Source: Nitrospirota bacterium (GTDB lineage Bacteria; Nitrospirota; UBA9217). From it: DNA of 35,886 nt. The stretch is from contig CAVVUN010000007.1 of NCBI GenBank assembly GCA_963751455.1, positions 1 to 35,886 of the forward strand, in the 5' to 3' direction. Shown piece by piece: positions 3,027-35,358 of this stretch. The notes beneath the pieces were generated by a model that did no database searches, was not told the DNA's origin, and saw only the letters and a list, made by a program, of their open reading frames with translations. Position 1 is the first letter of the stretch, and each line of letters starts with the position of its first letter. Made by a program: the position numbers and the translations under genes.

Positions 3027-4412
3027 ATGACGAGAATAATTGCGTTATTTACGACGCTGTCCATTGTGTGCCTTGCGCTATCGGGCTGCAGCAAATCGAA
3101 TTCAGGCGCCGGTCAGGCGAGCCTCAATCTGGCGGGCAGCAAGCAAGGCCAGGCCGTCGGATTCGCGGACGTGGACGGAGACGGCATTACAGACAAGCTG
3201 GTGGGCGCTCCCTATGCATCTGCAATATCAGGCCAGACGACAGGAGCGCTCCTGGTCTACAAGGGCAATACATCTGGCTACAGCTCAATTCCGTACCTGG
3301 TTTTGACGGGCGGTGATAATTTCGGCTATTCCGCTGCCGGCCTTGGCGACGTTGACGGAGACGAAATAGAGGACTTCGCAGTCGGCGCTATTCACGGGGA
3401 CGGGACAGAGGTATCGCTCAGCGGGAATGTCACCGTTTTCAAGGGTGGAAGCAACGGCCAGATAATAAAAACCGTGTCGGGTGAAGGACCGATGGATAAA
3501 TTCGGCGTTTCTGTTGCAGGGGGTGACCTGAACGCTGACGGGATCACGGATCTCATCGTGGGCGCCCCGTTCAACACGAATGATCCCGCGCTTTACCAGA
3601 GCGGAGCAGTATGTGTTTTCCTGAGCGCAAGCGGCAGCCAGGCTTTTACGAACCCGGTAAAGCTTTATGCCTCTTCAACAAATAAATCCATCGGATCGGT
3701 TGTCGCGTCAGGAGATGTGAATGGTGACGGCGCGGCAGACCTGCTGTTTTCGGCAAGCGGCAAAGTCCTCGTCTATTTCGGTGGTTCATCATTCACCCCG
3801 TCCATCGATTCGCCGAACATCACGATTAAAAGCAGCGCCTCCGGGTTCGGCAAAGCGATCGCCGTGATCGGGGACATCGATGGAGACGCAGTGCAGGAAA
3901 TCGCAATCGGCGCGCCGGGTGCCGCGATCAACACGGGGAGCGTCTATATCGTCAAAGGTTCGGCAACGGGGACCGTGAATCTCGATTCGGCGCCCGCAAC
4001 GCTCATGGTCCGGATCGACGGAGGAGGGATTTTCAACCGGTTCGGAGCTTCGATCGCGGCGCTGAACGATATCGACGCTGACGGAAAGCGCGATTTTGCC
4101 GTCGGCGCCCCGATGGCGGATGTTACCTCGGGCACCGGTCAGAACGTCCTCAGCGGCAAGGCTTATGTTTTCAAGGGCAAGGATATTACCTCATCAGCCA
4201 CCCTTGCCAGCGGCACAGCATTTAGCGGCAAGGTCAAGGACCAAGCCTACGGCGCGTCTCTCGCAGCTACGGCAAGCGGACAACTCGCAATAGGGGCGCC
4301 CCGCTCAAATGCCGACACGGGCGGTGTGGACATGGTCGATGCGGCGACTGGTGAGGCTGTTTCCGGAGGAAGCAGCGGCGGTTCAACAGGCGGCAGCGGT
4401 GACTGCCATTGA
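3027..4412 (+). CDS. FG-GAP (integrin-alpha beta-propeller) repeat lipoprotein
   Basis: Lipobox LSGC. Repeated FG...GDxxGDGxxDxxVGAP units. Gly/Ser tail ending GDCH. GGAG RBS. Confidence 0.9.
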   Translation: MTRIIALFTTLSIVCLALSGCSKSNSGAGQASLNLAGSKQGQAVGFADVDGDGITDKLVGAPYASAISGQTTGALLVYKGNTSGYSSIPYLVLTGGDNFGYSAAGLGDVDGDEIEDFAVGAIHGDGTEVSLSGNVTVFKGGSNGQIIKTVSGEGPMDKFGVSVAGGDLNADGITDLIVGAPFNTNDPALYQSGAVCVFLSASGSQAFTNPVKLYASSTNKSIGSVVASGDVNGDGAADLLFSASGKVLVYFGGSSFTPSIDSPNITIKSSASGFGKAIAVIGDIDGDAVQEIAIGAPGAAINTGSVYIVKGSATGTVNLDSAPATLMVRIDGGGIFNRFGASIAALNDIDADGKRDFAVGAPMADVTSGTGQNVLSGKAYVFKGKDITSSATLASGTAFSGKVKDQAYGASLAATASGQLAIGAPRSNADTGGVDMVDAATGEAVSGGSSGGSTGGSGDCH

Positions 4413-4431
4413 TCTTGAAAGCAGCAATTGG

Positions 4432-4549
4432 AACCACAGATAAACGCAGATGAAATGCAAATTGATCAGCAGCATGACTTCAGGATTTTATCTGACTGGC
4501 CATACAGTTTTTTGATTTACGTCTCAAATATCTGTGTTCATCTGTGGTT
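4432..4549. repeat. Intergenic inverted repeat element
   Basis: AACCACAGATAAACGCAGAT (4432-4451) and ATCTGTGTTCATCTGTGGTT (4530-4549) are 18/20 complementary. Confidence 0.75.
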
Positions 4550-4581
4550 ACTACTTTTAAAATAAACAGGAGGCATTTGTC

Positions 4582-5685
4582 ATGACAAAATTAATAGCCT
4601 TTTCAATAATCGCATTCATCGGGCTGGCCTCAATCGGCTACCTCTATGGAGAAACCCTTACCTATAATGCGACGTTTAATGCGGACGGTATGAAATATCA
4701 GCCCGCCCCGACCGGACATATCCCTGGCAAGGACAACGGGGCCGGCACGGGTCTTCACAATGCGGGCGAGGACTGCGGCATGTGCCATACGCCGAACGGC
4801 AAGGCCGGAAATTACGCGTTCACAGTCGGGGGCACGATTTACGAGGACCGGGCGGCCAGGCGAACGCTAAAGGGCGCCGAAGTCATTCTCCAGGATATCA
4901 GCGGCAAGGTCATCAGCATGACCACCAACGAGGCGGGCAACTTCTGGACCTATACCCCGCTCGCGGGCAACTCCTACGCGGTCTCAAGTCACAGCGGTAT
5001 GACCGACATTCTCTACACCGTGAATGGAGACGGCTCGGTGACGCCTGCGGACACGGCCTTACCCATGACTTGGGAATACAAGGCGTGGGTAAAAAACCCG
5101 GATGGAACAGTTCGCCACATGGTCACGATCGCACCGATCGGAGGCATGAGCGCTCCAAGAATGGGCTGCAACATGCACCATTCCGCGTTCGGGACGACCG
5201 GAGCCGCGTGGGCTACGCGAAAGAGTACTGTAGCAAGTTATCCTGCGTCGGGCTTGAGTTTCGGGAAGCATATTCTCCCCGTATTCAAGGCCAAGTGCGC
5301 ACCCTGCCATGTTCCCGGCGCCACCAAGACGAGACTCGCAACCATAAGCGATGTGCTGACGAGCTCAACCAATACCAGCACGCTCGCACTTACGAACAGT
5401 TCAATAACATCGATCGATTACAGCGGGGGGATTGATTTCCAGTCCTATGACGGTTCGACTGTAGCGGCGCTTGTAAGCGGGGTCACAACAACGATTACGA
5501 AGACAGGGATAAAAGCGCTCACCCTCCCCTATCAGTCGAATCCCGATGCCAGTCCGGTCCTTTCCAAGACGCTGATACAACCGGCCGGTGTTTGCATTCA
5601 TCCCGGCGGCACTTTCTGGACGGCCGAGGATCCGGATTACAAGGCCATCCGTGCATGGATCTCCGAAGGAGCTCAGAATAACTGA
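4582..5685 (+). CDS. Secreted c-type cytochrome (2 canonical CxxCH plus one CxxHH variant)
   Basis: N-terminal signal/anchor, HNAGEDCGMCH, CNMHH, CAPCH and C-terminal IRAWISEGA. AGGAGG RBS. Confidence 0.85.
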   Translation: MTKLIAFSIIAFIGLASIGYLYGETLTYNATFNADGMKYQPAPTGHIPGKDNGAGTGLHNAGEDCGMCHTPNGKAGNYAFTVGGTIYEDRAARRTLKGAEVILQDISGKVISMTTNEAGNFWTYTPLAGNSYAVSSHSGMTDILYTVNGDGSVTPADTALPMTWEYKAWVKNPDGTVRHMVTIAPIGGMSAPRMGCNMHHSAFGTTGAAWATRKSTVASYPASGLSFGKHILPVFKAKCAPCHVPGATKTRLATISDVLTSSTNTSTLALTNSSITSIDYSGGIDFQSYDGSTVAALVSGVTTTITKTGIKALTLPYQSNPDASPVLSKTLIQPAGVCIHPGGTFWTAEDPDYKAIRAWISEGAQNN

Positions 5686-5738
5686 AGGACCGGCTTTTTG
5701 TTCTTGTCGAACATGAAAATCCGGGATAATATTGCGGT

Positions 5739-6188
5739 ATGAACAACCAGCGGATAAATGTTTCATCAACCGTTCTGCTTCTTTTCTTTCTGCTTATAAC
5801 ACTCGTTTCCTGCTCGCGTCAGGCCGTTTACCCGGGGCCTGACGTGAGAGGAACGAATGTTGTTATCGATCTTTCCGTGCTGCAGCCGGAACTCCCGAAG
5901 TTCTATACATACACATTTCAGGGCAAGAAAATCAATTTTTTCACGATTCTTTTGAACGGCAAAGCAGTTTCCTTTCTCGACGCCTGCACGAGCTGCTATG
6001 CGCAAAAACGCGGCTATAAATACGATAACGGCACGGTAGTCTGCAGAGACTGCAATATGACATTTTCAGTTTACAAACTTGAAAAAGGCCTGGGCGGCTG
6101 CTATCCAATCAAAATAGAAGGCAGAACTGATAAAGGAAAATATATTATTGCCCTGACCGCGCTTCAAAGTGCAGTAAAGCGATTCTGA
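5739..6188 (+). CDS. DUF2318 / Fe-S-containing membrane (lipo)protein
   Basis: DACTSCY...GY...VCRDC...GGCYPI Cys pattern characteristic of DUF2318. Hydrophobic N-terminus with a possible lipobox (LVSC). Confidence 0.85.
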   Translation: MNNQRINVSSTVLLLFFLLITLVSCSRQAVYPGPDVRGTNVVIDLSVLQPELPKFYTYTFQGKKINFFTILLNGKAVSFLDACTSCYAQKRGYKYDNGTVVCRDCNMTFSVYKLEKGLGGCYPIKIEGRTDKGKYIIALTALQSAVKRF

Positions 6189-6488
6189 CGAGCCCAGCAC
6201 TTCTTATCTCTTCTCCGAAATGTCATCAGAGCCCCATGTCCCGTGAACGGCTTGCTGACGGAGCTTCAATAATCCGCTATACTGAAAACATGATTTTCTT
6301 GTAATTCTTAATTCTTTGCCAGAGGAAGCACGAGGACCGGTTTAAGGGTTTCATATCTTCTGTTCGTAAGCAAGGAAGGGAGGTGACACGGGGCTGAACT
6401 GATATTTAATTCAATGTTCTGAAACATCAATTAATAAACAGGTCGATTATCAGAAGTAAGAGAATCAGCAACTAACGAGGAGGTCACA

Positions 6489-7727
6489 ATGAAGGTTCTC
6501 AGTACATGTTTACTTCTGTTTCTCGCTGCACTGCCCTTGACGGCTGTGGGGGCCGAAAAGGCCAAGACCATCGATCAACTTGCAGCGATGTACGATTCAT
6601 CAAGTTGCAAAAAGTGCCATGCCGAGATTTACTCGCAATGGGAAAAATCGCACCATGCAAGGCCGCTGATGGGCGTAAAGGGCGGATTGATGCTTACGCC
6701 GCTAGCAAAAAAAGGTGGCACGGCTTTTTCTCCTGACGATCCCAAAAAAGCGACTATCGCGAATTATCCGTGTTTCAAGTGTCATCTTCCCCACGCTATC
6801 ATCTCTGCTGAGGATTCGGTGGCAGTCGAGCTTACCGAAGCCCTGCTGGTAGCCGCGGATGAAAAGGCTTCCGACAAGGCAAAAACTGACGCAAAAGCAA
6901 AAGTTGCGAAGCTTCAGATCACCTGCGTTGTCTGCCATAACACCAAGGCTATTATTCACAAACGGGAGCTCGGAGAACCTGAGAAAGGCGTGCTCTACGG
7001 CAAAAAGGACGTTGCGTCGCACCCGGACAAGACCTTCACCTCCGTAAAAAAGAGCGCCATTATGACGGATTCAGTGTACTGCGGACAATGCCACGGTTTG
7101 GGCCCGAATTTCGAGTTCGACCAGCCGTTCCAGTGCGCTAATCTCTATGGAAATTATCTCCACTCGTATATCCCTTCAGGAGGCACGCAGTCATGCCAGG
7201 ATTGTCATATGGCAAAGGGAGATCACGTTATCGCGCCCAATTTCAATGACGATAAGCAGACGTCGGAACTTCTGGCAAAGGCAATTAACCTCGATGTTCA
7301 GACATTGGGGTATGAGTGGTTGAGAAAAGCCGGAGATCTACACCCGAAACTCGTGGTCAATACCACGATAACGACAAGCGCCGGCCACCGCATTCCTGAC
7401 GGCTGACCGTCCCACAACAGAGTGGTCATGGTCGTGACCGCAAAATCTCCAGACGGCAAGGAAATCGCAAAAGCAGAAAGACATTATCATCCCCAGGCAA
7501 CGAACTGCAGAGATACAAAGATGAAGTACGGCGCTCAGTGGAAGGTGGCCAATATCCGGGACACGAGCCTTCAGCCCAGACAAGCCAAAAAAGAGAGCTT
7601 CGAGTTTGATTTACCGAAAGATGTGAGAACGGTAGATGTGACAGTCGATCTGTCATATGAAGCCTCAAAGCCGGACAATAAGTACCCGATCCACACGATT
7701 ACAAGAAAAGTGTCACTTGACCGATAG
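6489..7727 (+). CDS. extKL: Pentaheme c-type cytochrome selenoprotein, ExtKL-like (412 aa, Sec at codon 306)
   Basis: Track ORFs 6489-7406 and 7422-7727 are in the same frame, separated only by TGA 7404-7406, and read GHRIPDG-U-PSHNRVV. Five CxxCH motifs (CKKCH, CFKCH, CVVCH, CGQCH, CQDCH). Signal peptide. SECIS-like hairpin downstream of the UGA. Confidence 0.9.
7422..7441 (+). promoter_or_regulatory. Bacterial SECIS-like hairpin
   Basis: GTGGTCAT-GGTC-GTGACCGC: an 8-bp stem with two G-U pairs and a G-starting 4-nt loop. The loop begins 24 nt after the UGA. Confidence 0.75.
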
Positions 7728-11440: not shown

Positions 11441-12649
11441 TTATTCGTACCGGAGCGCCTGGATTGGGTCCTGGAGTGCTGCCTTGCGCGCCGGATACAC
11501 GCCGAAGAATACGCCGACTGCGGCTGAAAAGGAAAATGCCATTGCAATCGACCAGACTGAAACACTCGTTGGCAGAACATCGATGAAGAGAGGGATTATC
11601 AGCGCGATGCCGACGCCTATTATGATGCCTATGATTCCGCCGGCGCCTGAAAGCGTCATCGCCTCTATCATGAACTGTGCCATAATATCGCGGTTGCGGG
11701 CACCGAGAGCTTTACGGATCCCGATCTCGCGGGTGCGCTCACGCACCGAAACGAGCATGATATTCATGATGCCGATGCCTCCTACCAGAAGCGATATGCC
11801 GGCGATGCCCCCCAATACCGCCGTAAGCACGCCCAGGATCGTATTCATGGTCGAAAGAATCGCTCCCTGTGTCTGGATCGTAAAATCCTCCTTGTGCGCA
11901 TGGCGCTTCATGAGAACGTCCTTGATCTGCGCCACTGCACGGTCGGTGTCTTCGGAACGCGGCGTGGATGCTATGATCTCGAAGAGCGCATCCGTGTCAA
12001 AGAGTTCCTGGCCGCTCGTGACCGGTATGTATACAATATCATCAAGGTCCATGCCGAGGCTCATCCCCTTCTTCCGCATCACGCCGACGACCCGGTATCG
12101 GGCGTCAGAGAGCATCACCACCCTGCCGAGAGCGTTCTGGTTGCCGAAGAGTTCCGCTTTGGCCTTTGCTCCGAGCACCACGATCTTGGCCTTGGAATCC
12201 ACATCCGACTGAGAGATAAAATTGCCGGTATCCACGAAAAGGTTCCTGACCCGCTGGAATTCCTGTGTAGCGCCGATAATCATTACATCACGCCCGAGGT
12301 TCTGATATTTTATCTTGCCCGTACCGAACACAAGCGGGACCGCGTCGGTCAGGAGCCAGGCGCGCCTTTTCAGCGCCAGCGCGTCATCGTACGTAAGTTT
12401 GCGGACCGTGCCTGCTGACGGGGGATGAAAGCCGCCGCTGGTGCTCGTCTTTCCCGGGGTAATGATGAGAAGATTCGTGCCGAGTCCCGTAAGCTCTTTG
12501 GTGATGTAAAGCCGCGCTCCTTCGCCGATCGATACCAGCAGAATCACAGCCATTACACCGATGATGACGCCGAGCATGGTTAGCCCTGAGCGAACCTTGT
12601 TTGAAAGGATCGCTTCGAAGGCGACCCTGATTGTTTCGATTAAGTTCAT
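11441..12649 (-). CDS. MacB/FtsX-family ABC transporter permease
   Basis: RSGLTMLGVIIGV, GGIGIMNIMLVSVRERTREIGIRKALGA and PARKAALQDPIQALRYE. Confidence 0.95.
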   Translation of the reverse strand: MNLIETIRVAFEAILSNKVRSGLTMLGVIIGVMAVILLVSIGEGARLYITKELTGLGTNLLIITPGKTSTSGGFHPPSAGTVRKLTYDDALALKRRAWLLTDAVPLVFGTGKIKYQNLGRDVMIIGATQEFQRVRNLFVDTGNFISQSDVDSKAKIVVLGAKAKAELFGNQNALGRVVMLSDARYRVVGVMRKKGMSLGMDLDDIVYIPVTSGQELFDTDALFEIIASTPRSEDTDRAVAQIKDVLMKRHAHKEDFTIQTQGAILSTMNTILGVLTAVLGGIAGISLLVGGIGIMNIMLVSVRERTREIGIRKALGARNRDIMAQFMIEAMTLSGAGGIIGIIIGVGIALIIPLFIDVLPTSVSVWSIAMAFSFSAAVGVFFGVYPARKAALQDPIQALRYE

Positions 12650-12694
12650 TTCATTTAGCCGCGGATTCTACGATTAATATAATAAATCACAGTT

Positions 12695-13369
12695 TTACAC
12701 TGCTTCATCGCCTACTACCTGACCGTCCCGAAGAGTAACTCTCCGCTTGCATCGTGCTGCTACGCTCTGATCATGGGTGACGATGATTATCGTTACACCC
12801 TGATTGTTCAGGTCCGTAAGAATGTTGAGGATGTCGGCGCCGGAGCGGCTATCGAGGTTTCCGGTCGGCTCATCGGCAAGCAGCAGCGGCGGATTGTTTA
12901 CGAGCGCCCGCGCTATGGCTACGCGCTGCTGCTGGCCGCCGGATAGTTCCGTAGGCCTGTGGCCCATTCGTTCGGCAAGGCCTACTTTCTGCAGGAGCGG
13001 CACGGCCCGGGCCTTGCGTTCACGTGCAGGAATACCACTGTAGATAAGCGGGACTTCTACGTTCTTGAGCGCGGTAAAACGTGGAAGCAGATTAAAGGTC
13101 TGAAATACAAATCCTATTTTTCTGTTCCTGAGCGCCGCGAGTTCGTCATCGTTCATGGCGTCTATCGCCCGGTCCTCGAAACTATATTTTCCGGACGTCG
13201 GACGGTCCAGGCACCCGATGATGTTCATCAGTGTGGATTTCCCCGATCCGGAAGGCCCCATGATCGCGATCAATTCCCCTTGCTGAACGGTCAGCGAAAT
13301 GCCGGAGAGAACGGGAAGGATTACTTCTCCCATGCGGTAGGTCTTGGTTATGTTGGAAAGTTCGATCAT
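12695..13369 (-). CDS. MacB/LolD-type ABC transporter ATP-binding protein
   Basis: Walker [34 protein letters not shown] and VTHD. Confidence 0.95.
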
Positions 13370-13494
13370 CAACTATCTACTTTGTCACAAGCCCACTCCT
13401 TGTCATTTCGACCAGAGGGAGAAATCTTGATTTTGACGATCTGGTTAGCTGTGCCAGCAATGGTTACATCCAGTGTTTCTTCGAAATATACTAG

Positions 13495-13702
13495 TGTAGT
13501 GTCTCTTAAATGGACGGTATTATATGATGATTTCTCATCGAAAACTTATCTTCGCATAAATATTTGCTGATGAATTTGTAGGGCGACCCTTTAGGGTTGC
13601 TGCTGTTCCGGCGCTTTCAGCAAGGCTAAAGCCTTGCCCTACAAGTTTGGCTGCGGCCTACTGCCGCGCTATGACAGCACCAGTCGTTTGTGAGACACTA
13701 CA
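13495..13702. mobile_element. 208-bp MITE with CTAG target-site duplication
   Basis: CTAG at 13491-13494 and 13703-13706. TIRs are TGTAGTGTCTCTTAAATG and (reverse complement) TGTAGTGTCTCACAAACG. Excision restores the NKLVYFEE reading frame. Confidence 0.9.
13576..13644. repeat. GTAG-type REP palindrome inside the MITE
   Basis: TTGTAGGGCGACCCTTTAGGGTTGC...GCAAGGCTAAAGCCTTGCCCTACAA. Confidence 0.8.
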
Positions 13703-13991
13703 CTAGTTTATTAATGTTATATCTCTCGGTAAAGCCTTTAACCATTTTGTTTTTATGCTCGCATAATCTCCGTTCGAGATTGTTGGTTACTCCTATATAC
13801 ATTACCTTGTTGTTCCAATTTGTGAGAAGATATACGTAGTAACGATGTCTATCAGTCATAGCTTCTGCATACCTCAATAATTACTTGTCATTTTGACCAA
13901 CAGGAGAAATCGTTTGAACGAATCCTTTCAAGAACAAGATTTCTCACTTCGTTCGAAATGACAAAGTGAGGCTTCAATTTGCAATTCGTAT

Positions 13992-15086
13992 TTATTTACT
14001 TTCTTCTATCTTCACCTTCACCCCATCCTTGAGCCCTGCGGCCTCGGGATTGGTAATGACATACTGGCCGGCCGAAAGGCCTTTTCTGATCTCGGTGAAG
14101 CTCCAGTTCGTTTCTCCGGTCTCAACCGGTTTCAATTTCGCGACGACTGTTGCGCCCGGCCGGACAGTTTTGCCTTCGGCAGTGAACACCTGCTTTTTGC
14201 CCTCGCGCTCTACCACGCACTGCGACGGAACTGAAAGAACGTTGTCCACGGTTGCGATGAGAATTTCGATGTCGGCGGACATTCCCGGCTTTAACCGGAA
14301 ATCTTTTTTTGAAAAGTAGATCCACACGTCCGCAGTCCGTGTCTCGAGCTTGCCCCCGCTCACGATCGGCGATATCCTCCCGATCTTTCCACTAAATTTC
14401 TCTCCGGGAAACGCATCCACAGTGATCCTTACGGGTTGTCCCAGTTTGAGCCTTCCTACATCGACTTCATCGATAGTCGCAAGCACGTAGATCCGATCAG
14501 GATTAACAATGGTGACGATCTGCTTCCCGGGTAGAAGCAACTCTCCGACTTCGCAATATTTCTTTGCGATAACGCCGCTGAAGGGCGCGCGAATGACCGA
14601 ATAATCCCGCTTCACGCCCGCGTCACTCTGCGCGGCCTGGTACTGCGATTTGGCAACTTCATATGCCCTGCGGGCCGCATCAAGGTCCTGCTGTGCAAGC
14701 ATGCCTTTTTCAAACAGGCCTTCGATCCGTTTAAGGTTTTTTTCAGATTCTTCATGCGTCGCCCTGCTCTGAGAAAGAACGTTTTCGCTTTGTACGGATT
14801 CTTCGGTCAGGTCGAGCCGCGCAATGAGTGCGCCTGCTTTGACGATATCGCCTTCCTTCACCGGAAGCATGGTTATCCTGCCGGTCCGCTGCGCTGAGAG
14901 GGTTACTTCGGTCTCTGATTTCACGGTAGATGTGGTCGTAGCGTTCACAACCACCCGCAGTTCGCCAGGCTTCAATTCAGCAACATTTACGGAAACCGGC
15001 TTTTTGCGGGCCAGGAGAGCGACTGCGGCGACAATGACGATGATGGGAATGATCCAGAGAAGCTTTTTTTTCGTAACGAATGCCAT
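13992..15086 (-). CDS. MacA-like periplasmic adaptor (membrane fusion protein)
   Basis: N-terminal TM anchor, GRITMLPVKEGDIVKAG, IRAPFSGVI, IDEVDVGRLKLGQ and LKPGMSA. Confidence 0.93.
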   Translation of the reverse strand: MAFVTKKKLLWIIPIIVIVAAVALLARKKPVSVNVAELKPGELRVVVNATTTSTVKSETEVTLSAQRTGRITMLPVKEGDIVKAGALIARLDLTEESVQSENVLSQSRATHEESEKNLKRIEGLFEKGMLAQQDLDAARRAYEVAKSQYQAAQSDAGVKRDYSVIRAPFSGVIAKKYCEVGELLLPGKQIVTIVNPDRIYVLATIDEVDVGRLKLGQPVRITVDAFPGEKFSGKIGRISPIVSGGKLETRTADVWIYFSKKDFRLKPGMSADIEILIATVDNVLSVPSQCVVEREGKKQVFTAEGKTVRPGATVVAKLKPVETGETNWSFTEIRKGLSAGQYVITNPEAAGLKDGVKVKIEESK

Positions 15087-15098
15087 TTCGGTTCTACC

Positions 15099-15548
15099 TT
15101 ATCCGTCTTTTTCCGCGCTCGTTTCCAGCCGCTCTTTGATGTTTTTCATGAACCCCCGAGCCACCTCCCCGAGTTTTTCCGCGACTACGATGTCCTGGAT
15201 AAAACTGAACCGTCCCGTTACATGTCCCTCGATGCGATAGCATATTTCCGTTTCTTCTTCGGATAGTTTGCTCAGGGCGACAGACCCGGAAGCCTTGATG
15301 TTCTCTCCATACGCGACCCAGGACAGTTTTTCCATTTCGACCATGTCGTTCGTGTGCGTCTTCATCTCCAGGGTGCGCGCGAACGGTCCGAGCGAGAACC
15401 TGACGGTCCAGACCGAGTCGAGATCATCGATGATCTTAACGCTCATGCATCCGGGGAAAAGACAGCCTACTTCGCGGCGGTCTTTCATAAAAGACCAGAC
15501 GTACTCGATCGGCAACTTCACGCTGAAAATCAGTTCCTTGGACGGCAC
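15099..15548 (-). CDS. CoxG/SRPBCC (START-like) ligand-binding protein
   Basis: PIEYVWSFMKD...GCLFPGC pattern of CoxG-like proteins. GGAGG RBS and GTG start. Confidence 0.8.
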   Translation of the reverse strand: MPSKELIFSVKLPIEYVWSFMKDRREVGCLFPGCMSVKIIDDLDSVWTVRFSLGPFARTLEMKTHTNDMVEMEKLSWVAYGENIKASGSVALSKLSEEETEICYRIEGHVTGRFSFIQDIVVAEKLGEVARGFMKNIKERLETSAEKDG

Positions 15549-15571
15549 AATTACCCTCCTCTGTTAATATC

Positions 15572-16876
15572 TTATTCCGCTCTACCCGTTGCCTTTAACA
15601 ATCTGGCAACGCTCAACTGGTAGTCGTACTGGGCCTGAATATGGTCGGTCTCTGCCTGGACTGCTGCCAGCTGCGCATCGGTCACTTCTATATAAGGGCC
15701 GATACCTGCCTGATAGCGCCCCTGGGCCAGTTCCAGGTTTTCCCTTGCTTTTTGAACAGAACTGTTCATAACGTCGATGCGAACCTTTGCGCTTTCCATA
15801 TCCGCAAAGGACTGGTTGACTTCGAGAAGTATGGATTGCCTTGTTGTGTCCAGTTGCGCCTCAAGGACCATCAGATTGCCGCGCGCCTCTGCTATACGGC
15901 CTCTCGTCAAACCTCCCTGGAACAGGGGCACGGTCAGGATAATCCCGGCATTCCAGCTGTCGTCTATGTCACCTTCCAACTGACGCCCCTCAAACTGTCC
16001 CATATCAGACTGTCCCGTCGCCCAGTTATAGGCGCCGTTTGCAGACACGGTTGGCAAATAATTTGATTGCTCAGCGGCTACTCTTGCTCTGGCAGCCTCG
16101 ATATCCGTCTCTGCCTTCAACAACTCCGGCCGGTTTTTGATCGCTTCCGCCTGGGCTGTTTCGAGTGAAGGCATCGTCGGATTTGACGGCAGCGAATCTT
16201 CTATCTCCGTCGTTTTCCCGGGATCGATTCCCATGGAATTGTTCAGTGCTATGGTCCGGATCCGTACGTTATTTTTCGCGTTGATCAATGCGAGACGTGC
16301 ATTATTTACTTCCACCTCGGTACGCGTTACATCGAATCGGGGTTTTGAACCGGCGTTGAAAAATGCCTGCGCCTGCCTGAGATGGCTTTCGGCCTGCTCC
16401 ACTCTTTTTTGCTCCACAAGCACCAGTTTTCCGGCCGCCAGGAGCGCATAATAAGCCTGCTTGACGTTCAGTATCACGTCCTGGACCGTGCGTTCAAGAT
16501 CCCTTTCCGACGATTGCTTTCCCCACCGAGCAGCATCCACGTTGTTTCCCGTCTTTCCAAAATCATAGAGAAGTTGGTTGACCTGGAGGGTCGTGGTGTA
16601 GCTTTTCGTGATGCTCTCGCCGAAAGCTCCGCCTGAAGAGTGGTTCTCGCTGTAACCCGTGCTTCCCGTCAGCTGCGGGAAATAGGAAGAGGTCGCCTGC
16701 AGTTCGCGGCCTGAAGCTGCTCTTAAATTCCCGCGGGCCGCCTTGAGCGCAGGCTGGTTCTTAAGCGCCGTTTCTATGCATTCATGCAGGCCAAGCTTTG
16801 TATCTGCTGAGACCTGCTGAACCGCGGAAATCAACAGAACCATTATAACGGCTAACGATCGCAAAAAGCACCTCAC
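15572..16876 (-). CDS. TolC-family outer-membrane efflux protein
   Basis: Signal peptide and two OEP repeats (QLLYDFGK; VPLFQGG; ENLELAQGRYQAG). Confidence 0.93.
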   Translation of the reverse strand: MRCFLRSLAVIMVLLISAVQQVSADTKLGLHECIETALKNQPALKAARGNLRAASGRELQATSSYFPQLTGSTGYSENHSSGGAFGESITKSYTTTLQVNQLLYDFGKTGNNVDAARWGKQSSERDLERTVQDVILNVKQAYYALLAAGKLVLVEQKRVEQAESHLRQAQAFFNAGSKPRFDVTRTEVEVNNARLALINAKNNVRIRTIALNNSMGIDPGKTTEIEDSLPSNPTMPSLETAQAEAIKNRPELLKAETDIEAARARVAAEQSNYLPTVSANGAYNWATGQSDMGQFEGRQLEGDIDDSWNAGIILTVPLFQGGLTRGRIAEARGNLMVLEAQLDTTRQSILLEVNQSFADMESAKVRIDVMNSSVQKARENLELAQGRYQAGIGPYIEVTDAQLAAVQAETDHIQAQYDYQLSVARLLKATGRAE

Positions 16877-16942: not shown

Positions 16943-17845
16943 ATGGGCCTTACCTTCAAACCGGCGGACCTGCAGTCTCTCGCGTTTCTTGTACTGCTCA
17001 GTATCATCACTGTCTGCTTCTTTCCGGCGGACCACCCGGCTGTCCGGCTTCTCACGACCTATTGCTTCCTTGCAGCCGCAATCGCTGCCTTTGCCTTGTA
17101 CAGGAATCGGGCGAAAAGTGAAAAAACCGGATTATTCCTGTATACAGCGCTGACCGTAACCGTCATCTCAATCGTTTTTAACAGCCTTGGAGACCTTATA
17201 GCCGGCATCTGGTCGCGCAGGTTCGATGACGTCCTGATCATGATCGACTACTCGCTTTTCGGGGTCCACCCTACGGTCTGGATAGAAAGAATGATCAGTC
17301 CTGCTGCAACCGCGGCACTCCAGTTCGCGTACATATCGTATTACTTCATCCCTGTTTCCGTTGCGTTCGTTCTCATTTCCAAAAACAGATACGATGAATT
17401 CGAACAGGCGCTGTTCGGCATAGTGCTCTGTTTTTATCTCTCCTATATCGGATACCTGCTCATGCCTGCGGTCGGACCCCGGTTCACGCTCGACCATCTG
17501 CAGACGGTCAGCCTGCAGGCCGGGCCCTTCATAAAATCGATCCAGGAAGGCCTGGACAGGCTGGAACACAACAAGACCGATGCGTTTCCCAGCGGACACA
17601 CTGCTGTCGCGCTCATGTCGCTCTATTATTCGTGGAAGTTCAAAGAAAAGATCCTTTTCAGGCTTATGCTTCCCATGGTTGCGGCGCTTATGGTCTCGAC
17701 CGTCTATCTCCGGTATCATTATGTGATCGACGTTATCGCGGGCATTGCCTTGACTGCTGTTGCCGTCTTTCTCGCTCCGTTTGTTCACGCAGGTTTGTCA
17801 CGCACAGCCAGGCATCCTCGCAAGCAGCGTCATGGCGGCGCCTGA
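16943..17845 (+). CDS. PAP2-superfamily membrane phosphatase/phosphotransferase (AUR1/IPC-synthase-like)
   Basis: Multi-TM protein with PAVGP, AFPSGH and YLRYHYVIDV motifs. Confidence 0.85.
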   Translation: MGLTFKPADLQSLAFLVLLSIITVCFFPADHPAVRLLTTYCFLAAAIAAFALYRNRAKSEKTGLFLYTALTVTVISIVFNSLGDLIAGIWSRRFDDVLIMIDYSLFGVHPTVWIERMISPAATAALQFAYISYYFIPVSVAFVLISKNRYDEFEQALFGIVLCFYLSYIGYLLMPAVGPRFTLDHLQTVSLQAGPFIKSIQEGLDRLEHNKTDAFPSGHTAVALMSLYYSWKFKEKILFRLMLPMVAALMVSTVYLRYHYVIDVIAGIALTAVAVFLAPFVHAGLSRTARHPRKQRHGGA

Positions 17846-18388
17846 CACCAGCGGAATCACAAGGTTGTCGTTCAGCCGGAACGAAACAAGCTCTACAGCA
17901 GCAGCGACAACCGCTCCGACCAGTATAATCGGCTTGATTACCTCTACACCCGCTAGCGGAAGGAGCAACCCCACGGTCGCGGCCGCCAGAACAAACGCAA
18001 AGGTACCTTCCAGGCTTTTATCCCCGATCTTTGTTTTTCCGTAGCGCTCCCCTACTGTCGTAGCTGCAACGTCGCCAAATGCCAGAAAGCATATGGCAGC
18101 TGTTGCTATATCCGTTCGATAGAGGTACAGGGACAGGCCGATACCGAGGATGTATGCAGGCGTTCCGGTAAGCTTATGTTCCTCGTTGCTGCGGACAAAG
18201 CTCCTGAATCTCTCGAATACAAAGCGGTTGACTGCCGGATTGCGAAGGCGGAGAAGATCGAGACCAAGCACAATGACGAACAGCACGGCATAGAAAAGCA
18301 GCGCCTTTTCTCTTCCGAGAACAAAATAGAGGGAGAGAAGACCAACGCCGCCGAAGAGATGATAAAATTTACGACCGAGATGCTTCAT
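17798..18388 (-). CDS. CTP-dependent lipid kinase-like membrane protein (Dgk1/phytol/dolichol kinase family)
   Basis: RKFYH, FGDVAATTVG, KSLEGT and NDNLVIP motifs. Confidence 0.85.
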   Translation of the reverse strand: MKHLGRKFYHLFGGVGLLSLYFVLGREKALLFYAVLFVIVLGLDLLRLRNPAVNRFVFERFRSFVRSNEEHKLTGTPAYILGIGLSLYLYRTDIATAAICFLAFGDVAATTVGERYGKTKIGDKSLEGTFAFVLAAATVGLLLPLAGVEVIKPIILVGAVVAAAVELVSFRLNDNLVIPLVSGAAMTLLARMPGCA

Positions 18389-18463: not shown

Positions 18464-19591
18464 CTATGCACTATGCGGTAATATTTTCCTTTCATAAATT
18501 CTGTACTTCTTATACAACTTCCCGCCCATCAGTTCGCAGCCTTTTTTCATCAACTCGTTGTCCTCGAGCACCCAGGACATCTCGGCCCGTTCATACCCTT
18601 TGCGCATGGCGGCTTTGAAGGACTCCAGGTAAAGCAGGCCTTCTATGCCTTTTTTTCGGAACTCCTGTCTTACGCCCATGGTAAGGACCCGGATGTCGGA
18701 TATTTTTCTCGAATACCACAGGAATTTGACAAGCTCGAACGGGCCCAGCCTGCCGTTGACCTTGCTCAAAACCTGGTTATAATCCGGGACTGCCATGAAG
18801 AAGCCGGCAGGCTTGTCGTTAATTTCAGCCATGATCAAAAGCTCCGGCACGATGAGCGGTTTCAGCCGCTTCGCCATCGATTCAATTTCCTGATCCGTCA
18901 TCGGTACGAAACCCCAGTTATGACTCCACGCAGAATTGTAGATGTCCTTTACAGCTTCAAGTTCTTTTCTGAAGTTTTTCATGTCCGCCGGACGAATCTT
19001 CAGTCCGTGTATGCGGGCTTTGAGGGCTGAAGCCAGTTTTTCAAGCCGTTCTCCAGCGGATACGTTCTTAATGATGGATATATAGGCGTATAGATCCTTG
19101 GCCTTGGTCAGTCCGCACTGTTCCATGTAATCCAGATAATACTGCGGCGTGTACGTCATCATGATCATTGGCGGTGAATCGAATCCTTCGAGAAGGAATC
19201 CGCATTCATCGTTCGTTGACGGATTCATGGGCCCGCGCATGACCTCTATGTTTCGCTCCTTGAGCCAGTCTGCGGCAGCGTTCAGGAGACCGTCCGCAAT
19301 AGTAACGTCGTCAAGACATTCGAAAAAACCGAAAAAGCCGGCTTGTTCCCTGTGTATGTTGATGTGATTGCGGTCAACAATCGCAGCGATCCTGCCCAAT
19401 ACATCGCCGTTACGGACTGCGAGGAAACAGGCTGCTTCTGCGTGGCGAAAGAAGGGGTTCTTTTTACCGAGGATGAACTTCATCTCGCTGATAAGCTGCG
19501 GCACCCAATGAGGATTCCCTTGATAGACTTTCCATGGGAAGCGGATGAATTGGTCCAATTGTTTCTTGGTTTTGACATTCTTAATGTGCAT
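18464..19591 (-). CDS. cerS: GNAT-fold protein, probable bacterial ceramide synthase
   Basis: FIRFPWKVY..PHWVP, GRIAAI, GFFGFFEC, GPMNPSTNDECG, WSHNWGFVPMT and EMSWVLEDN. Directly downstream of spt. Confidence 0.8.
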   Translation of the reverse strand: MHIKNVKTKKQLDQFIRFPWKVYQGNPHWVPQLISEMKFILGKKNPFFRHAEAACFLAVRNGDVLGRIAAIVDRNHINIHREQAGFFGFFECLDDVTIADGLLNAAADWLKERNIEVMRGPMNPSTNDECGFLLEGFDSPPMIMMTYTPQYYLDYMEQCGLTKAKDLYAYISIIKNVSAGERLEKLASALKARIHGLKIRPADMKNFRKELEAVKDIYNSAWSHNWGFVPMTDQEIESMAKRLKPLIVPELLIMAEINDKPAGFFMAVPDYNQVLSKVNGRLGPFELVKFLWYSRKISDIRVLTMGVRQEFRKKGIEGLLYLESFKAAMRKGYERAEMSWVLEDNELMKKGCELMGGKLYKKYRIYERKILPHSA

Positions 19592-20834: not shown

Positions 20835-21821
20835 TCAATGTAACCAGTTCTGTTCGCGGTACCATTTCCAGGTCGCCTCCAACCCTTTCCGGAGAGGATA
20901 CGCCGGCGTGAAACCGATTTGTTTCTCTGTCGTGCTCACGTCGCAAACCCAGTATCTTTGCGCGGCCTCCCGCACTTTCTGGCGGTTTGTAATTGGCGCT
21001 CGCGATCTGAAGATGCCGCTGCATTCGTATGCGAGCCCAACAAGGTAAGCCACCGGATACGGTATTCTAACGGTATAAGCTTTCACCCCTCCTGTTGTGA
21101 GCAGCGTTTCTCTGAAGTCCGACCAGGAATATGTCCTGTTCTCGGCCACAAAATATATTCCGCCGTTCGGCGTTTGCCGTTCAGCAGCCAGGACCATGGC
21201 CGCGGAAAGATCACCGACATAGCAGGGATTGATAAAATGTTCACCGCTCCCTATCTCAAGCGTAACACCGCGGCTGGCCCAGCAGAAAAGCTCGTATACG
21301 TCTCGGTCACGAGGCCCGTATACCGCCGAAGGCCGCATTATAACCACGGGAAAGGTGTCGCGGCAGGCGAGTGTTGCCTGCTCGGCAAACATCTTGCTCC
21401 GGCCGTAATCGGATACCGGGCGCAATGGATCGCCGGCGCAAACCGGTTTGCCGTCCGGGCTCGGACCTGCTGCCGCCAGACTCGATACCAGGATGAACTT
21501 GCTGATGCCGGGGTTATGACGGGCGCATGCTTCCAACAGATTGCTCGTGCCGACGTGGTTTACCGTGTAGTAATCACGGCTGCGAATCGCCTTTGTCAGA
21601 CCTGCAGCATGAAAAACAATCGACACGCCTTTTACTGCGGGAACGAGTGATTCAGGATAGAGGCAATCTCCCCGCACTATCGCGACGGGCAAGCCGGCAA
21701 GCCACTGCGGACGGCGCGGGTCTCGTACGAGGCACGTGACTTCATACCCTCGCTGGAGGAGCAATTCCACGAGGTGACTCCCCACGAAACCCGTACCTCC
21801 GGTCACGAGCACTCTTGTCAA
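20835..21821 (-). CDS. NAD-dependent epimerase/dehydratase (extended SDR), probable ceramide/3-keto reductase CerR
   Basis: TGGTGFVG, YGRSK and RPSAVYGPRD. Immediately upstream of spt. Confidence 0.8.
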   Translation of the reverse strand: MTRVLVTGGTGFVGSHLVELLLQRGYEVTCLVRDPRRPQWLAGLPVAIVRGDCLYPESLVPAVKGVSIVFHAAGLTKAIRSRDYYTVNHVGTSNLLEACARHNPGISKFILVSSLAAAGPSPDGKPVCAGDPLRPVSDYGRSKMFAEQATLACRDTFPVVIMRPSAVYGPRDRDVYELFCWASRGVTLEIGSGEHFINPCYVGDLSAAMVLAAERQTPNGGIYFVAENRTYSWSDFRETLLTTGGVKAYTVRIPYPVAYLVGLAYECSGIFRSRAPITNRQKVREAAQRYWVCDVSTTEKQIGFTPAYPLRKGLEATWKWYREQNWLH

Positions 21822-29722: not shown

Positions 29723-29856
29723 GATACCTACTATATCAAACCTTACATGCTTGTCAAGAAAAAGAACTAGATTTTTTTCACAACTCAGGGTCGTGTCATT
29801 GTTCAATGCAACGGTACAATAACAAACATCTTTTCACGCACATTCACTTCCTTTAC

Positions 29857-29932
29857 CGTCATTCCGGCTTGTCCGGAATCTTTCCTGCATTTTCAGAAGG
29901 ATTCCCGACGCGCTTCGCTTGCGGGAATGACG
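29857..29932. repeat. CGTC-type palindromic repeat
   Basis: CGTCATTCCGGCTTGTCCGGAATC...GATTCCCGACGCGCTTCGCTTGCGGGAATGACG. Confidence 0.8.
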
Positions 29933-30033
29933 TTATAGGGGTTTATGTGCGACTTTGACGGGACCGTGTTTCACAACTGCTGTGGGTGGAAATCGAGGAT
30001 ACCATTGTGATATAATGGATTACTGGAGAACAC

Positions 30034-33075: not shown

Positions 33076-35358
33076 TTATCCCAATCCTGCAAGTCTCCCG
33101 CCCTGGTATATGGCAAACGCAACGACCCATGCCAGGACCATCTGATATGCGAACGCGATCCCGAACCACTTCCAGGTGCCGAATTCCTGCTTCATAGCAA
33201 TAGCTACGACCACACATGGCATATACAGCAGGACGAATGTTATAAAGGCATAGGCGCTCAAGGGAGTGAATTGCCCCTTGATTACGCTTCGTAAAGGTGA
33301 GCGTTCTTTTTGTTCTTCCGAGGATTCCTGCGCAGACATACTTTCGATGCCAAACCCGGAAACGACATTGACTACGGAATCACGGGCAGCGCCGGCAAAG
33401 CTCGTCCCGATCTCCTTAAAATCTTCAGTCAGCATTGGTATCTCTTTCTTTTCTTCACCCGCCTTTGGCACATAGATCTCACCCATGGTTCCGACCACAA
33501 TTTCCTTGGCGATCAGGCCTGAGACGAGCGATGATGCAGCTTCCCAGTTGCCGAATCCAAGAGGCTTTAAAACCGGCGCGATCACTTGGCCCATCTGACC
33601 CAGGTAAGAGTCTTTCTTGTGCTCCACGCCCCACGGAAGATTCAGAAGAAACCAGACGAGGATAGAGACTGCAAGAATATAGGTTCCCGCTTTGATCAGG
33701 AAATGCTTGCCCTTCTCCCATGTGTGGATCATCAGGCTCCGGAAGGACGGCATGCGGTAAGGCGGCAACTCCATGATGAACATCGGCGCTTCCCCTCTAA
33801 ACAGCGTTCTTTTGAAGATGATTCCCATGATGACCGCAAGAACAATACCCATCACGTAAAGCGACCAGAGGACCGTTCCTGCATGTGAAGCAAAGAAGAC
33901 CCCGATGAAGACAACGTACACCGGAAGCCGCGCGCCGCATGACATGAGCGGGATCAAGAGCGCGGTAAGCGCCTTGTCACGCTCGTTCTCCAGCGTTCGC
34001 GTAGCATAGACAGCGGGCACATTACAACCGAAGCCCAGAAGCATGGGGATAAAGGATTTGCCGTGAAGGCCCATGGCATGCATTGCCCTGTCCATCACGA
34101 AAGCCGCCCGTGCCATGTAGCCGCTTCCCTCGAGGAAAGTGATGAAAAACATCATCGCGAAAATGACCGGCACGAATACCAGCACGAAGCCGACGCCGGC
34201 GATGACGCCGTCCGTTGCAAGTGATACCGTCCAGTCTGAAGCGCCGACGACACCGAGAATCGCCTCGGTCCACCTTTTAAAGGGACCTGCGGTCATGGCG
34301 TCGATCCAGTCGACGAAAGGCGTTGACACGTCGAAGGTCAGCTTGAACATGAGCCACATGGCTGCCAGAAAGATGGGAATGCCGAAAAAGCGATTTAGGA
34401 CAATCCGGTCTATCTTTTCAGTCAACTCGGTCTTTCTTGTTTCCGGCCTGCGCAGCACTTCCCGCGTCAACCCCGCGGCCTGCCCGTACCGCGCATCCGC
34501 CATAAGGGTCTCCATGTCGGAATCATGCGCCTGCTCCAGATGTGCGGTCGCGTCCTCTATTGCGGACTCAATATTGCCGAGACTCACTTCTTTCAAGACC
34601 CGATCATCGCCTTCCATGATCTTGAATGTCAGCCAGCGTTTGGGATACCATTCAGCAAGCTCCTTATGCGGGCCAAGTATCGTTTTTTCTACAACCGATG
34701 CAGCAGCCTCTATGTCTTCTCCATATCGAAGTTCCTTGGTGCGTACCGGGTTATCCGCCGCTTCCAAGGCAGCCTTCAGAAGGTCTTTCAGACCGTTTTT
34801 TTTCGTAGCCACAGTCGGAACTATGGTCATCCCGAGCATCTTTTCCATGGTCTTTACATCGATTGTGTATCCCTTTTGTTCAGCTTCGTCATAAATATTC
34901 AATGCCATGACGACCGGGATACCCAACTCCAGGAGCTGTACCGTAAGATAGAGGTTGCGTTCAAGGTTCGTGGCGTCGACCACGTTTACGATAATATCCG
35001 GACGTTCGTTTACCAGGTAGTCCCGGGCGATTATCTCTTCCTGGGTATAGGGGCTCAGGCTATAGATTCCGGGAAGATCAACAAGCTTGATCACTGCGTC
35101 TCCGTATTCGAACTGAGCTTCCTTTTTTTCAACAGTCACGCCCGGCCAGTTTCCCACGTGCAGCCGGGTTCCTGCAATAGCATTAATGAGGGTAGATTTT
35201 CCAGAATTCGGGTTCCCGGCCACTGCAACGGTAATCGTTTTTTTCGATTCCAGCAGGCCTGTTACCGCCGAATCCTTTAACTGCGAACTTTGAGCACCCT
35301 GCATTCGCGCTTTCGCACTCATTAACGCTGGGTGCAAGTCTCCGAACTCCGAAATCAT
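33076..35358 (-). CDS. feoB: Ferrous iron transporter B
   Basis: GNPNSGKS, VGNWPGVTVE, DLPG and GFGCNVP. Confidence 0.97.
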   Translation of the reverse strand: MISEFGDLHPALMSAKARMQGAQSSQLKDSAVTGLLESKKTITVAVAGNPNSGKSTLINAIAGTRLHVGNWPGVTVEKKEAQFEYGDAVIKLVDLPGIYSLSPYTQEEIIARDYLVNERPDIIVNVVDATNLERNLYLTVQLLELGIPVVMALNIYDEAEQKGYTIDVKTMEKMLGMTIVPTVATKKNGLKDLLKAALEAADNPVRTKELRYGEDIEAAASVVEKTILGPHKELAEWYPKRWLTFKIMEGDDRVLKEVSLGNIESAIEDATAHLEQAHDSDMETLMADARYGQAAGLTREVLRRPETRKTELTEKIDRIVLNRFFGIPIFLAAMWLMFKLTFDVSTPFVDWIDAMTAGPFKRWTEAILGVVGASDWTVSLATDGVIAGVGFVLVFVPVIFAMMFFITFLEGSGYMARAAFVMDRAMHAMGLHGKSFIPMLLGFGCNVPAVYATRTLENERDKALTALLIPLMSCGARLPVYVVFIGVFFASHAGTVLWSLYVMGIVLAVIMGIIFKRTLFRGEAPMFIMELPPYRMPSFRSLMIHTWEKGKHFLIKAGTYILAVSILVWFLLNLPWGVEHKKDSYLGQMGQVIAPVLKPLGFGNWEAASSLVSGLIAKEIVVGTMGEIYVPKAGEEKKEIPMLTEDFKEIGTSFAGAARDSVVNVVSGFGIESMSAQESSEEQKERSPLRSVIKGQFTPLSAYAFITFVLLYMPCVVVAIAMKQEFGTWKWFGIAFAYQMVLAWVVAFAIYQGGRLAGLG

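Follow-up and report, generated by a model that had tools for sequence, protein, structure and literature searches.

A PAP2_3 membrane protein family tied to ceramide synthesis genes in Nitrospirota is a candidate Aur1-like ceramide head-group transferase

A membrane protein of the PAP2_3 family, encoded close to serine palmitoyltransferase (spt) and putative ceramide synthase (cerS) genes in a Nitrospirota genome, is strictly tied to ceramide synthesis in this phylum. With a confidence only a little above even, we interpret this protein as an Aur1-like transferase that adds a phospho-head group to ceramide, with phosphoethanolamine, donated by PE, as the most probable one, and we interpret the kinase-like gene that overlaps it as encoding a general salvage enzyme and not a dedicated partner. 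A first-pass annotation of the same DNA had proposed, as one of two readings, that the PAP2 protein is a phospho-ceramide synthase, and this is still the best reading, given its predicted Aur1-like fold, its motifs, and its strict tie to spt-cerS.

The window, meaning the whole stretch of DNA that was analyzed, is the entire 35,886-nucleotide contig C7 of a 5.7-Mb assembly. Its sphingolipid genes are ordered SDR, Spt, GNAT, and kinase-like membrane protein on the minus strand, and the last of these is convergent with the PAP2 gene (Table 1). Both ORFs of the convergent pair run from an ATG to a TGA. The database gene call gives the same 300 aa for the PAP2 protein, whose best relatives with names are from Nitrospirota, and 196 aa is the length of most close homologues of the kinase-like protein, whose gene begins 75 bp beyond the stop codon of cerS. 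The ORFs and a 60-orthologue alignment confirmed the gene pair, its convergent overlap of 48 bp, and the PAVGP, AFPSGH, and HYxxD motifs as first annotated. The overlap is confined to the variable C-terminal tails of the two proteins, and in one relative (G019) both matched regions abut; the 48-bp overlap was not seen as a fixed feature across relatives.

Table 1. Genes of the sphingolipid locus and its resident neighbors in the window
Feature	Position	Strand	Basis
PAP2_3 (PF14378) membrane protein, 300 aa; putative ceramide phospho-head-group transferase with a predicted Aur1-like fold, the triad H219/H259/D263, and the signature residue Y258	16943..17845	+	Pfam, orthologue alignment, model, co-occurrence
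Membrane protein of 196 aa resembling Dgk1 and prenol kinases; probably a general CTP-dependent lipid-alcohol kinase, uncoupled from ceramide synthesis	17798..18388	-	Motifs, homologue names, fold
Putative bacterial ceramide synthase bCerS, a 375-aa acyltransferase with a GNAT fold	18464..19591	-	Generic GNAT match, co-occurrence with Spt
Serine palmitoyltransferase Spt, 392 aa	19619..20797	-	NCBIfam and PDB matches
Putative CerR, a 328-aa reductase of the extended SDR/epimerase family	20835..21821	-	Generic SDR match, context
TolC, CoxG/START-fold protein, MFP, ABC ATPase, MacB-type permease; resident neighbors outside the sphingolipid unit	11441..16876	-	Kept where spt/cerS/PAP2 are absent

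The Spt protein scores 568 bits on the NCBIfam model SerpalmtaseCFB, below the equivalog cut-off of 640 yet nearer SPT than Kbl (403 bits) or BioF (390 bits). Its best PDB match is SPT (3a2b/8guh, E 7e-131), and the GNAT and SDR genes adjoin it. In searches, the GNAT protein matched only a generic GNAT family, and from its context we take it to be a putative bCerS. The SDR, which lies directly upstream of spt in most loci, is read from its context as CerR. A promoter and terminator scan gave results at chance level. A syntenic second copy of the window lies on contig C1 (G000:C1:45934-74369, L137) at 78-96% nucleotide identity and carries frameshifts in tolC, PAP2, kinase, cerS, and spt; a relative binned together with the host, or poor polishing of the contig, is the probable origin of this copy. 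With bin contamination at 5.4%, C7 or C1 may belong to such a relative; results across the family are independent of this question of binning.

To the PAP2 protein, Pfam assigns 83 bits for PAP2_3 and 43.8 bits for PAP2, and its motifs read PAVGP, AFPSGH, and HYVID. All 60 aligned orthologues keep P175, A176, G178, P179, R180, F215, P216, S217, H219, H259, Y260, and D263, and the H-H-D triad among these (H219, H259, D263) aligns with H255/H294/D298 of Aur1. PAP2-type phosphatases are defined by the motifs C1 (KxxxxxxRP) and C3 (SRxxxxxHxxxD). The protein lacks this canonical pair: Y171 and G178 occupy the Lys and Arg positions of C1, and C3 has S/A-T, reading S-T and not S-R here, like Aur1 STMYLTHHYFVD. 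Among 150 wider representatives examined, S-R was found in none of the 148 with a readable C3. The invariant residues R180 and R257 might replace the missing C1 and C3 arginines, which could permit some phosphatase chemistry. At 50% identity, the family comprises 1220 clusters (E up to 1e-30).

The model of the PAP2 protein (pLDDT 92.4) predicts an Aur1-like fold, an assignment for which Foldseek is the single basis. Aur1 structures were the only matches below E 0.001 (9vj4, E 2.5e-5, TM 0.60; 9ivc, E 4e-5), while PgpB, YodM, SMSr, and LpxE matched at E 0.055 or worse. The similarity to Aur1 (TM 0.60/0.63 over 290 columns) extends beyond the shared LPT core to an Aur1-type fold. Aur1 also led a sequence search with the single PAP2 protein (E 0.0013). 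In a profile search, YodM and PgpB scored above Aur1, and Aur1 alone aligned over positions 98-278.

We assessed co-occurrence in 161 Nitrospirota genomes that were at least 90% complete and in a family set of 64 genomes. Orthologues were required to share at least 47% identity for PAP2 (weak and paralogous matches dropped), at least 60% for CerS, and at least 64% for Spt (Kbl/BioF-like matches at 40-48% dropped). The first-pass annotation would have been refuted by a linkage to spt that is not conserved. For PAP2 this refutation failed, as the link proved to be conserved across the phylum: PAP2 was present in 68 genomes, all 68 of which also had CerS and Spt orthologues, and no genome had PAP2 on its own. 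The genomes are kin, so that these figures do not represent independent events. In 10/161, Spt and CerS were present and PAP2 was not. A CerS match was present in 80/161 genomes and co-occurred with Spt in 78 of the 80; Spt orthologues were found in 77 genomes, plus one (G045) in which Spt is frameshifted. Within the family, 45 of 64 genomes had both PAP2 and CerS, 16 had neither, and 3 had only one, all three of them less than 90% complete. Presence and absence were both seen inside genera g8, g19, g6, g17, and g11 and inside family f3 (G141).

The arrangement of the genes adds to this. The kinase gene has PAP2 on one side and spt-cerS on the other, with PAP2 and spt-cerS on different strands, and in loci that lack the ceramide genes it is flanked immediately by a CDF gene and tolC (7/28 relatives' loci). 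In loci without the cassette, PAP2 and spt-cerS are thus missing together, although the gene between them is kept. Among the best 80 of 204 related loci, PAP2 was beside spt or cerS without the kinase in 30 and with it in 15; the SDR was the sole neighbor in 7, and 28 loci were unlinked or short. Kinase-less loci that join PAP2 to spt or cerS occur in Nitrospirota, Desulfuromonadia, Binatia, Acidobacteriota, Firestonebacteria, and Planctomycetota. A genome-wide check of 36 hosts, mostly with an unlinked PAP2, found an Spt-like gene of at least 49% identity in 34, a count to be read without a base rate for those phyla; one of the genomes (G108) is unpublished. In a quick unrooted tree, the kinase-less PAP2 copies from Nitrospirota form one clade with those from Desulfuromonadia and Binatia (SH-aLRT 100) among kinase-linked copies, a topology that fits transfer of the cassette.

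Some hosts of this cassette carry a further gene set beside it. In Desulfuromonadia-type hosts, a divergent type I PKS with NMO-KS-AT-ACP domains is attached to the PAP2/cerS-spt-cerR cassette, together with a 277-aa protein without a known family and a second CerS-like GNAT (~38%). In some family members, the same unit is found on its own. The loci concerned are L039-L042, L046, L054-L056, L058, and L060, and also L131 and L133. It is possible that the PKS supplies sphingolipid chains in these hosts.

Which phospholipid donates the head group can be narrowed from the gene content of the host. MIPS was found in only 2/64 family genomes and not in the host (the positive control matched in B. 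thetaiotaomicron), and the four CDP-alcohol transferases of the host all score as PgsA or PssA and not as a PIP synthase. Queries with MIPS and PIP synthase gave no match in the host genome and, in 5 relatives, no more than motif-level matches. The host has neither an inositol-phosphate synthase nor a PIP synthase; thus, the donor is unlikely to be PI, and we rejected inositol as a donor in this host. The product of the PAP2 protein here is most likely a non-inositol phosphosphingolipid. Elsewhere, MIPS was not found in 5/5 deltaproteobacterial-type hosts, 2/2 Calditrichia, or 2/2 f3 genomes; 2/2 Blastocatellia had it, as did 4 genomes from other families of Nitrospirota. Among five tested genomes from other Nitrospirota families, four (L208-L211) have ino1 immediately upstream of a gene for a PIP-synthase-like protein, which scores 134-159 bits on NF045883 against a cut-off of 170. 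Inositol lipids are predicted for these hosts from their genes, and some PAP2 orthologues could use PI where this pair is present. We also rejected the idea that the residue at position 212 (Thr in 30 and Arg in 27 of 60) marks the use of inositol: Arg is found in the orthologues of Calditrichia, in which 2/2 tested hosts lack MIPS.

The remaining donors considered were PE and PG, both of which can be made by the host (psd-pssA and pgsA are present). Psd occurs in 160/161 phylum genomes and was uninformative as a discriminating test. The residue before the catalytic His is Tyr (Y258) in 60/60 orthologues and Tyr or Phe in 145/148 wider representatives. In trypanosome synthases, Ser at this position goes with IPC, and Phe or Tyr goes with SM/EPC (PMC11796370). 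By analogy, Tyr258 tilts the balance toward a phosphoethanolamine head group; the rule comes from the SMS/SLS clade, and Aur1 itself has a His there. An unlikely alternative, but the one that survives best, is that the same transferase takes PG as a donor and makes ceramide phosphoglycerol, or that the family is promiscuous and uses PI where the host makes it. PG would be as available as PE, the PAP2 family occurs in both MIPS-negative and MIPS-positive hosts, and the invariant basic residues R180 and R257 near the site could suit an anionic donor. However, the invariant acidic residues E208 and D213 (59/60) also flank the site, and in the trypanosome enzymes a bulky Tyr as the signature residue accompanies amine head groups. 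We therefore favor PE as the donor.

The preferred reading, transfer from PE, suggests the following route. Spt, bCerS, and CerR are predicted to make ceramide. By analogy with Aur1, whose H255/H294/D298 triad supports a two-step mechanism that releases DAG (PMC13133130), D263 would activate H259, which would attack the donor phospholipid with release of DAG. H219 would then activate the 1-OH of ceramide, which would take the head group. The kinase, if it acts on DAG, would recycle the DAG released by the transferase as one general job.

The kinase-like protein had no Pfam match (PF01148 included) and no NCBIfam or PDB sequence match. Its invariant residues (R6/H10, G105-D106, K124-S125-x-E-G128, and D174-N175) fit the RKxxH and CTP-transferase motifs; R6, H10, G105, D106, K124, S125, and G128 are invariant in 26/26 sequences, and K7 is kept in at least 90%. 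The automatic names of its homologues support the first-pass label of a Dgk1/dolichol-kinase-family protein, and a neighboring Atlas cluster at 0.95 is named diacylglycerol/polyprenol kinase and has PF01148 on 41% of its members. Its fold matches, weak for a helical protein, point in the direction of CdsA and CarS (Foldseek CdsA, E 0.055; VIA, Z 9.2 [rmsd 5.1, 160 aligned]; CarS, Z 7.6). On motifs, names, Atlas neighbor, and fold matches, we place it with Dgk1 and the prenol kinases, although this is less directly shown; the first-pass label thus stands on these grounds and not on a Pfam, NCBIfam, or PDB sequence match. By its motifs it resembles yeast Dgk1, plant VTE5/FOLK, and Plasmodium PolK, which are CTP-dependent lipid-alcohol kinases, and it may share a CdsA-like fold with them. 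It shares the R-K-x-x-H clamp with PolK (PMC10849223) and the conserved Asp of the CTP-transferase domain with Dgk1 (D177; PMC2459266). A PlsY-kinase fusion is hinted at by some automatic names of homologues; fused forms appeared as 4 weak matches, with lengths of 344-399 aa falling outside both searches. In two family genomes, a distant 450-475-aa kinase-domain protein lies beside a distant CerS-like GNAT and an acyl-CoA-ligase-family gene (L122:5182-7601, L123:6363-8722).

We found the kinase in 59/64 family genomes, including 32/32 good ones, and in 52/161 phylum genomes (one weak match dropped). Of these 52, 35 have ceramide genes and 17 lack spt/cerS. Since it is kept in genomes without ceramide genes, the kinase is a core gene with its own job, likely that of a general CTP-dependent lipid-alcohol salvage kinase. 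The first-pass annotation had instead made it a dedicated step, either recycling DAG for a eukaryote-like synthase or forming a ceramide kinase/phosphatase pair with PAP2. Such a coupled pathway is improbable. It would account for the placement of the kinase directly after cerS on the same strand, for its adjacency to PAP2 in 32/45 cassette-bearing genomes of the family (f1), and for family f3 (L124, L125), in which the kinase lies inside cerR-spt-kinase-PAP2 and no DAGK_cat was found above cut-off in 5/5 genomes; its position inside an spt...PAP2 cluster in two families (f1 and f3) suggests some benefit of linkage. However, the kinase profile had no match in 33/68 PAP2 genomes, close to half, and the cassette lies elsewhere while the kinase stays in 13/45 family genomes, in addition to the 17/52 kinase genomes without spt/cerS. 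The phosphatase half of the pair is further opposed by the missing C1 and C3 phosphate-binding residues of PAP2. The synthase part of the earlier proposal is therefore retained, and DAG recycling is possible only as a general, non-dedicated job of the kinase.

As to the substrate of this general kinase, DAG is our leading candidate at somewhat less than an even chance, and a free prenol is a possible but weaker one. The position of the kinase inside the cluster slightly favors DAG, and its mqnA and CoxG neighbors would favor a prenol. In family f6 (L126, L129), the run kinase-mqnA-tolC-exporter occurs without ceramide genes, an order that makes an isoprenoid/quinone link possible for the kinase and CoxG. 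The kinase was also considered as a replacement for DgkA, which was not seen: DgkA is present in 50/52 kinase genomes, as a DgkA-PAP2 fusion after ybeY. This fusion is presumably of the type that acts on undecaprenol.

The first-pass annotation had also joined the nearby MacAB-TolC-type exporter to a synthesis, modification, and export system, a role that we rejected. Loci that lack spt, cerS, and PAP2 keep the tolC-coxG-mfp-abc-permease run whole, and the exporter is not part of the mobile cassette. Between the MFP and ABC genes, a 216-bp element (13491-13706) is inserted, of which the genome holds ~25 additional copies (93-98% identity), and a 59-aa GIY-YIG fragment lies beside it (13698-13877, minus strand). 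A 183-bp stretch at 29786-29968 has three more matches on other contigs (86-100% identity). The window also holds genes for an FG-GAP repeat protein, a c-type cytochrome, an FtrD-like protein, and a multiheme cytochrome (3027-7406), and feoB (33076-35358).

Least probable of all is a role of PAP2 in dephosphorylating ceramide-1-phosphate, sphingoid phosphates, or undecaprenyl phosphates. Its PSGH motif and weak matches (22-27 bits, cut-offs 177-261) to the models of LpxE, PgpB, and undecaprenyl-PP phosphatase would point to such a lipid phosphate phosphatase, but against it stand the predicted Aur1-type fold, the absence of any PAP2 without spt/cerS in 161 genomes, and the presence in the host of BacA and the DgkA-PAP2 fusion for carrier-lipid recycling.

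We next compared the preferred reading, an Aur1-like head-group transferase, with known systems. BT_1522 of Bacteroides thetaiotaomicron, a phosphoinositol-dihydroceramide synthase, is Aur1-like, makes inositol phosphoceramide, and adjoins MIPS and PIP synthase (PMC9246714, PMC8791184). It resembles our protein in being a bacterial Aur1-like PAP2 protein, and its model, NF052609, is the best NCBIfam match of the PAP2 protein; however, the score is 28.3 bits against a cut-off of 480, and four orthologues score 0-45 bits. Whereas BT_1522 uses PI and sits with MIPS and PIP synthase, the PAP2 gene sits with spt-cerS-cerR in a host that has neither. Saccharomyces cerevisiae Aur1 (PDB 9vj4, 9ivc; PMC13133130) is the best fold match and shares the H-H-D triad, a C3 with S-T where phosphatases have S-R, and a PAxxP loop that replaces C1. 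It differs in sequence (~18% identity) and in the residue before the nucleophile (His293 in Aur1 versus Tyr258 here), and it has strict PI specificity and needs Kei1. The trypanosome SM/EPC synthases (TbSLS2-4, TvSLS) share Phe/Tyr before the catalytic His (PMC11796370), and PE is the predicted donor here, but these enzymes and SMSr belong to another clade, and mammalian SMSr is a weak fold match (E 0.066, TM 0.37). The CpgB route of Caulobacter crescentus (PMC11324152) likewise builds a phosphosphingolipid on Spt/bCerS/CerR ceramide; it differs in that CpgB makes ceramide-1-phosphate first, and PAP2 is not mentioned in that paper. The DAGK_cat-type kinase of the host also occurs in 2/5 spt-negative relatives.

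The locus had first been described as a possible new pathway. As BT_1522 is described in PMC9246714 as a proven bacterial Aur1-like ceramide head-group transferase, that wording was too strong, and the new element is a separate candidate Aur1-like family that would work in inositol-free hosts. In Bacteroides, ethanolamine phosphoceramide ranks with the most abundant bacterial sphingolipids, and the 2022 study that reports this describes a search by similarity to the fly enzyme that gave no candidate synthase (PMC8791184). Our literature search, in which coverage of subscription journals was thin, found no bacterial PAP2-type ethanolamine phosphoceramide synthase named. Tentatively, and somewhat short of an even chance, the PAP2_3 family may be a bacterial ceramide phosphoethanolamine synthase on the Aur1 fold that, in a four-gene cassette with cerR-spt-cerS across Nitrospirota, Desulfuromonadia, Binatia, and others, would supply anaerobic environmental bacteria with a phosphosphingolipid for which the same literature search gave no bacterial synthase. 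The kinase and the exporter are neighbors, to be left out of the proposed pathway. An Aur1-fold family tied to spt-cerS in inositol-free hosts is a concrete candidate for the ethanolamine phosphoceramide synthase, and it predicts phosphosphingolipids in Nitrospirota and Desulfuromonadia.
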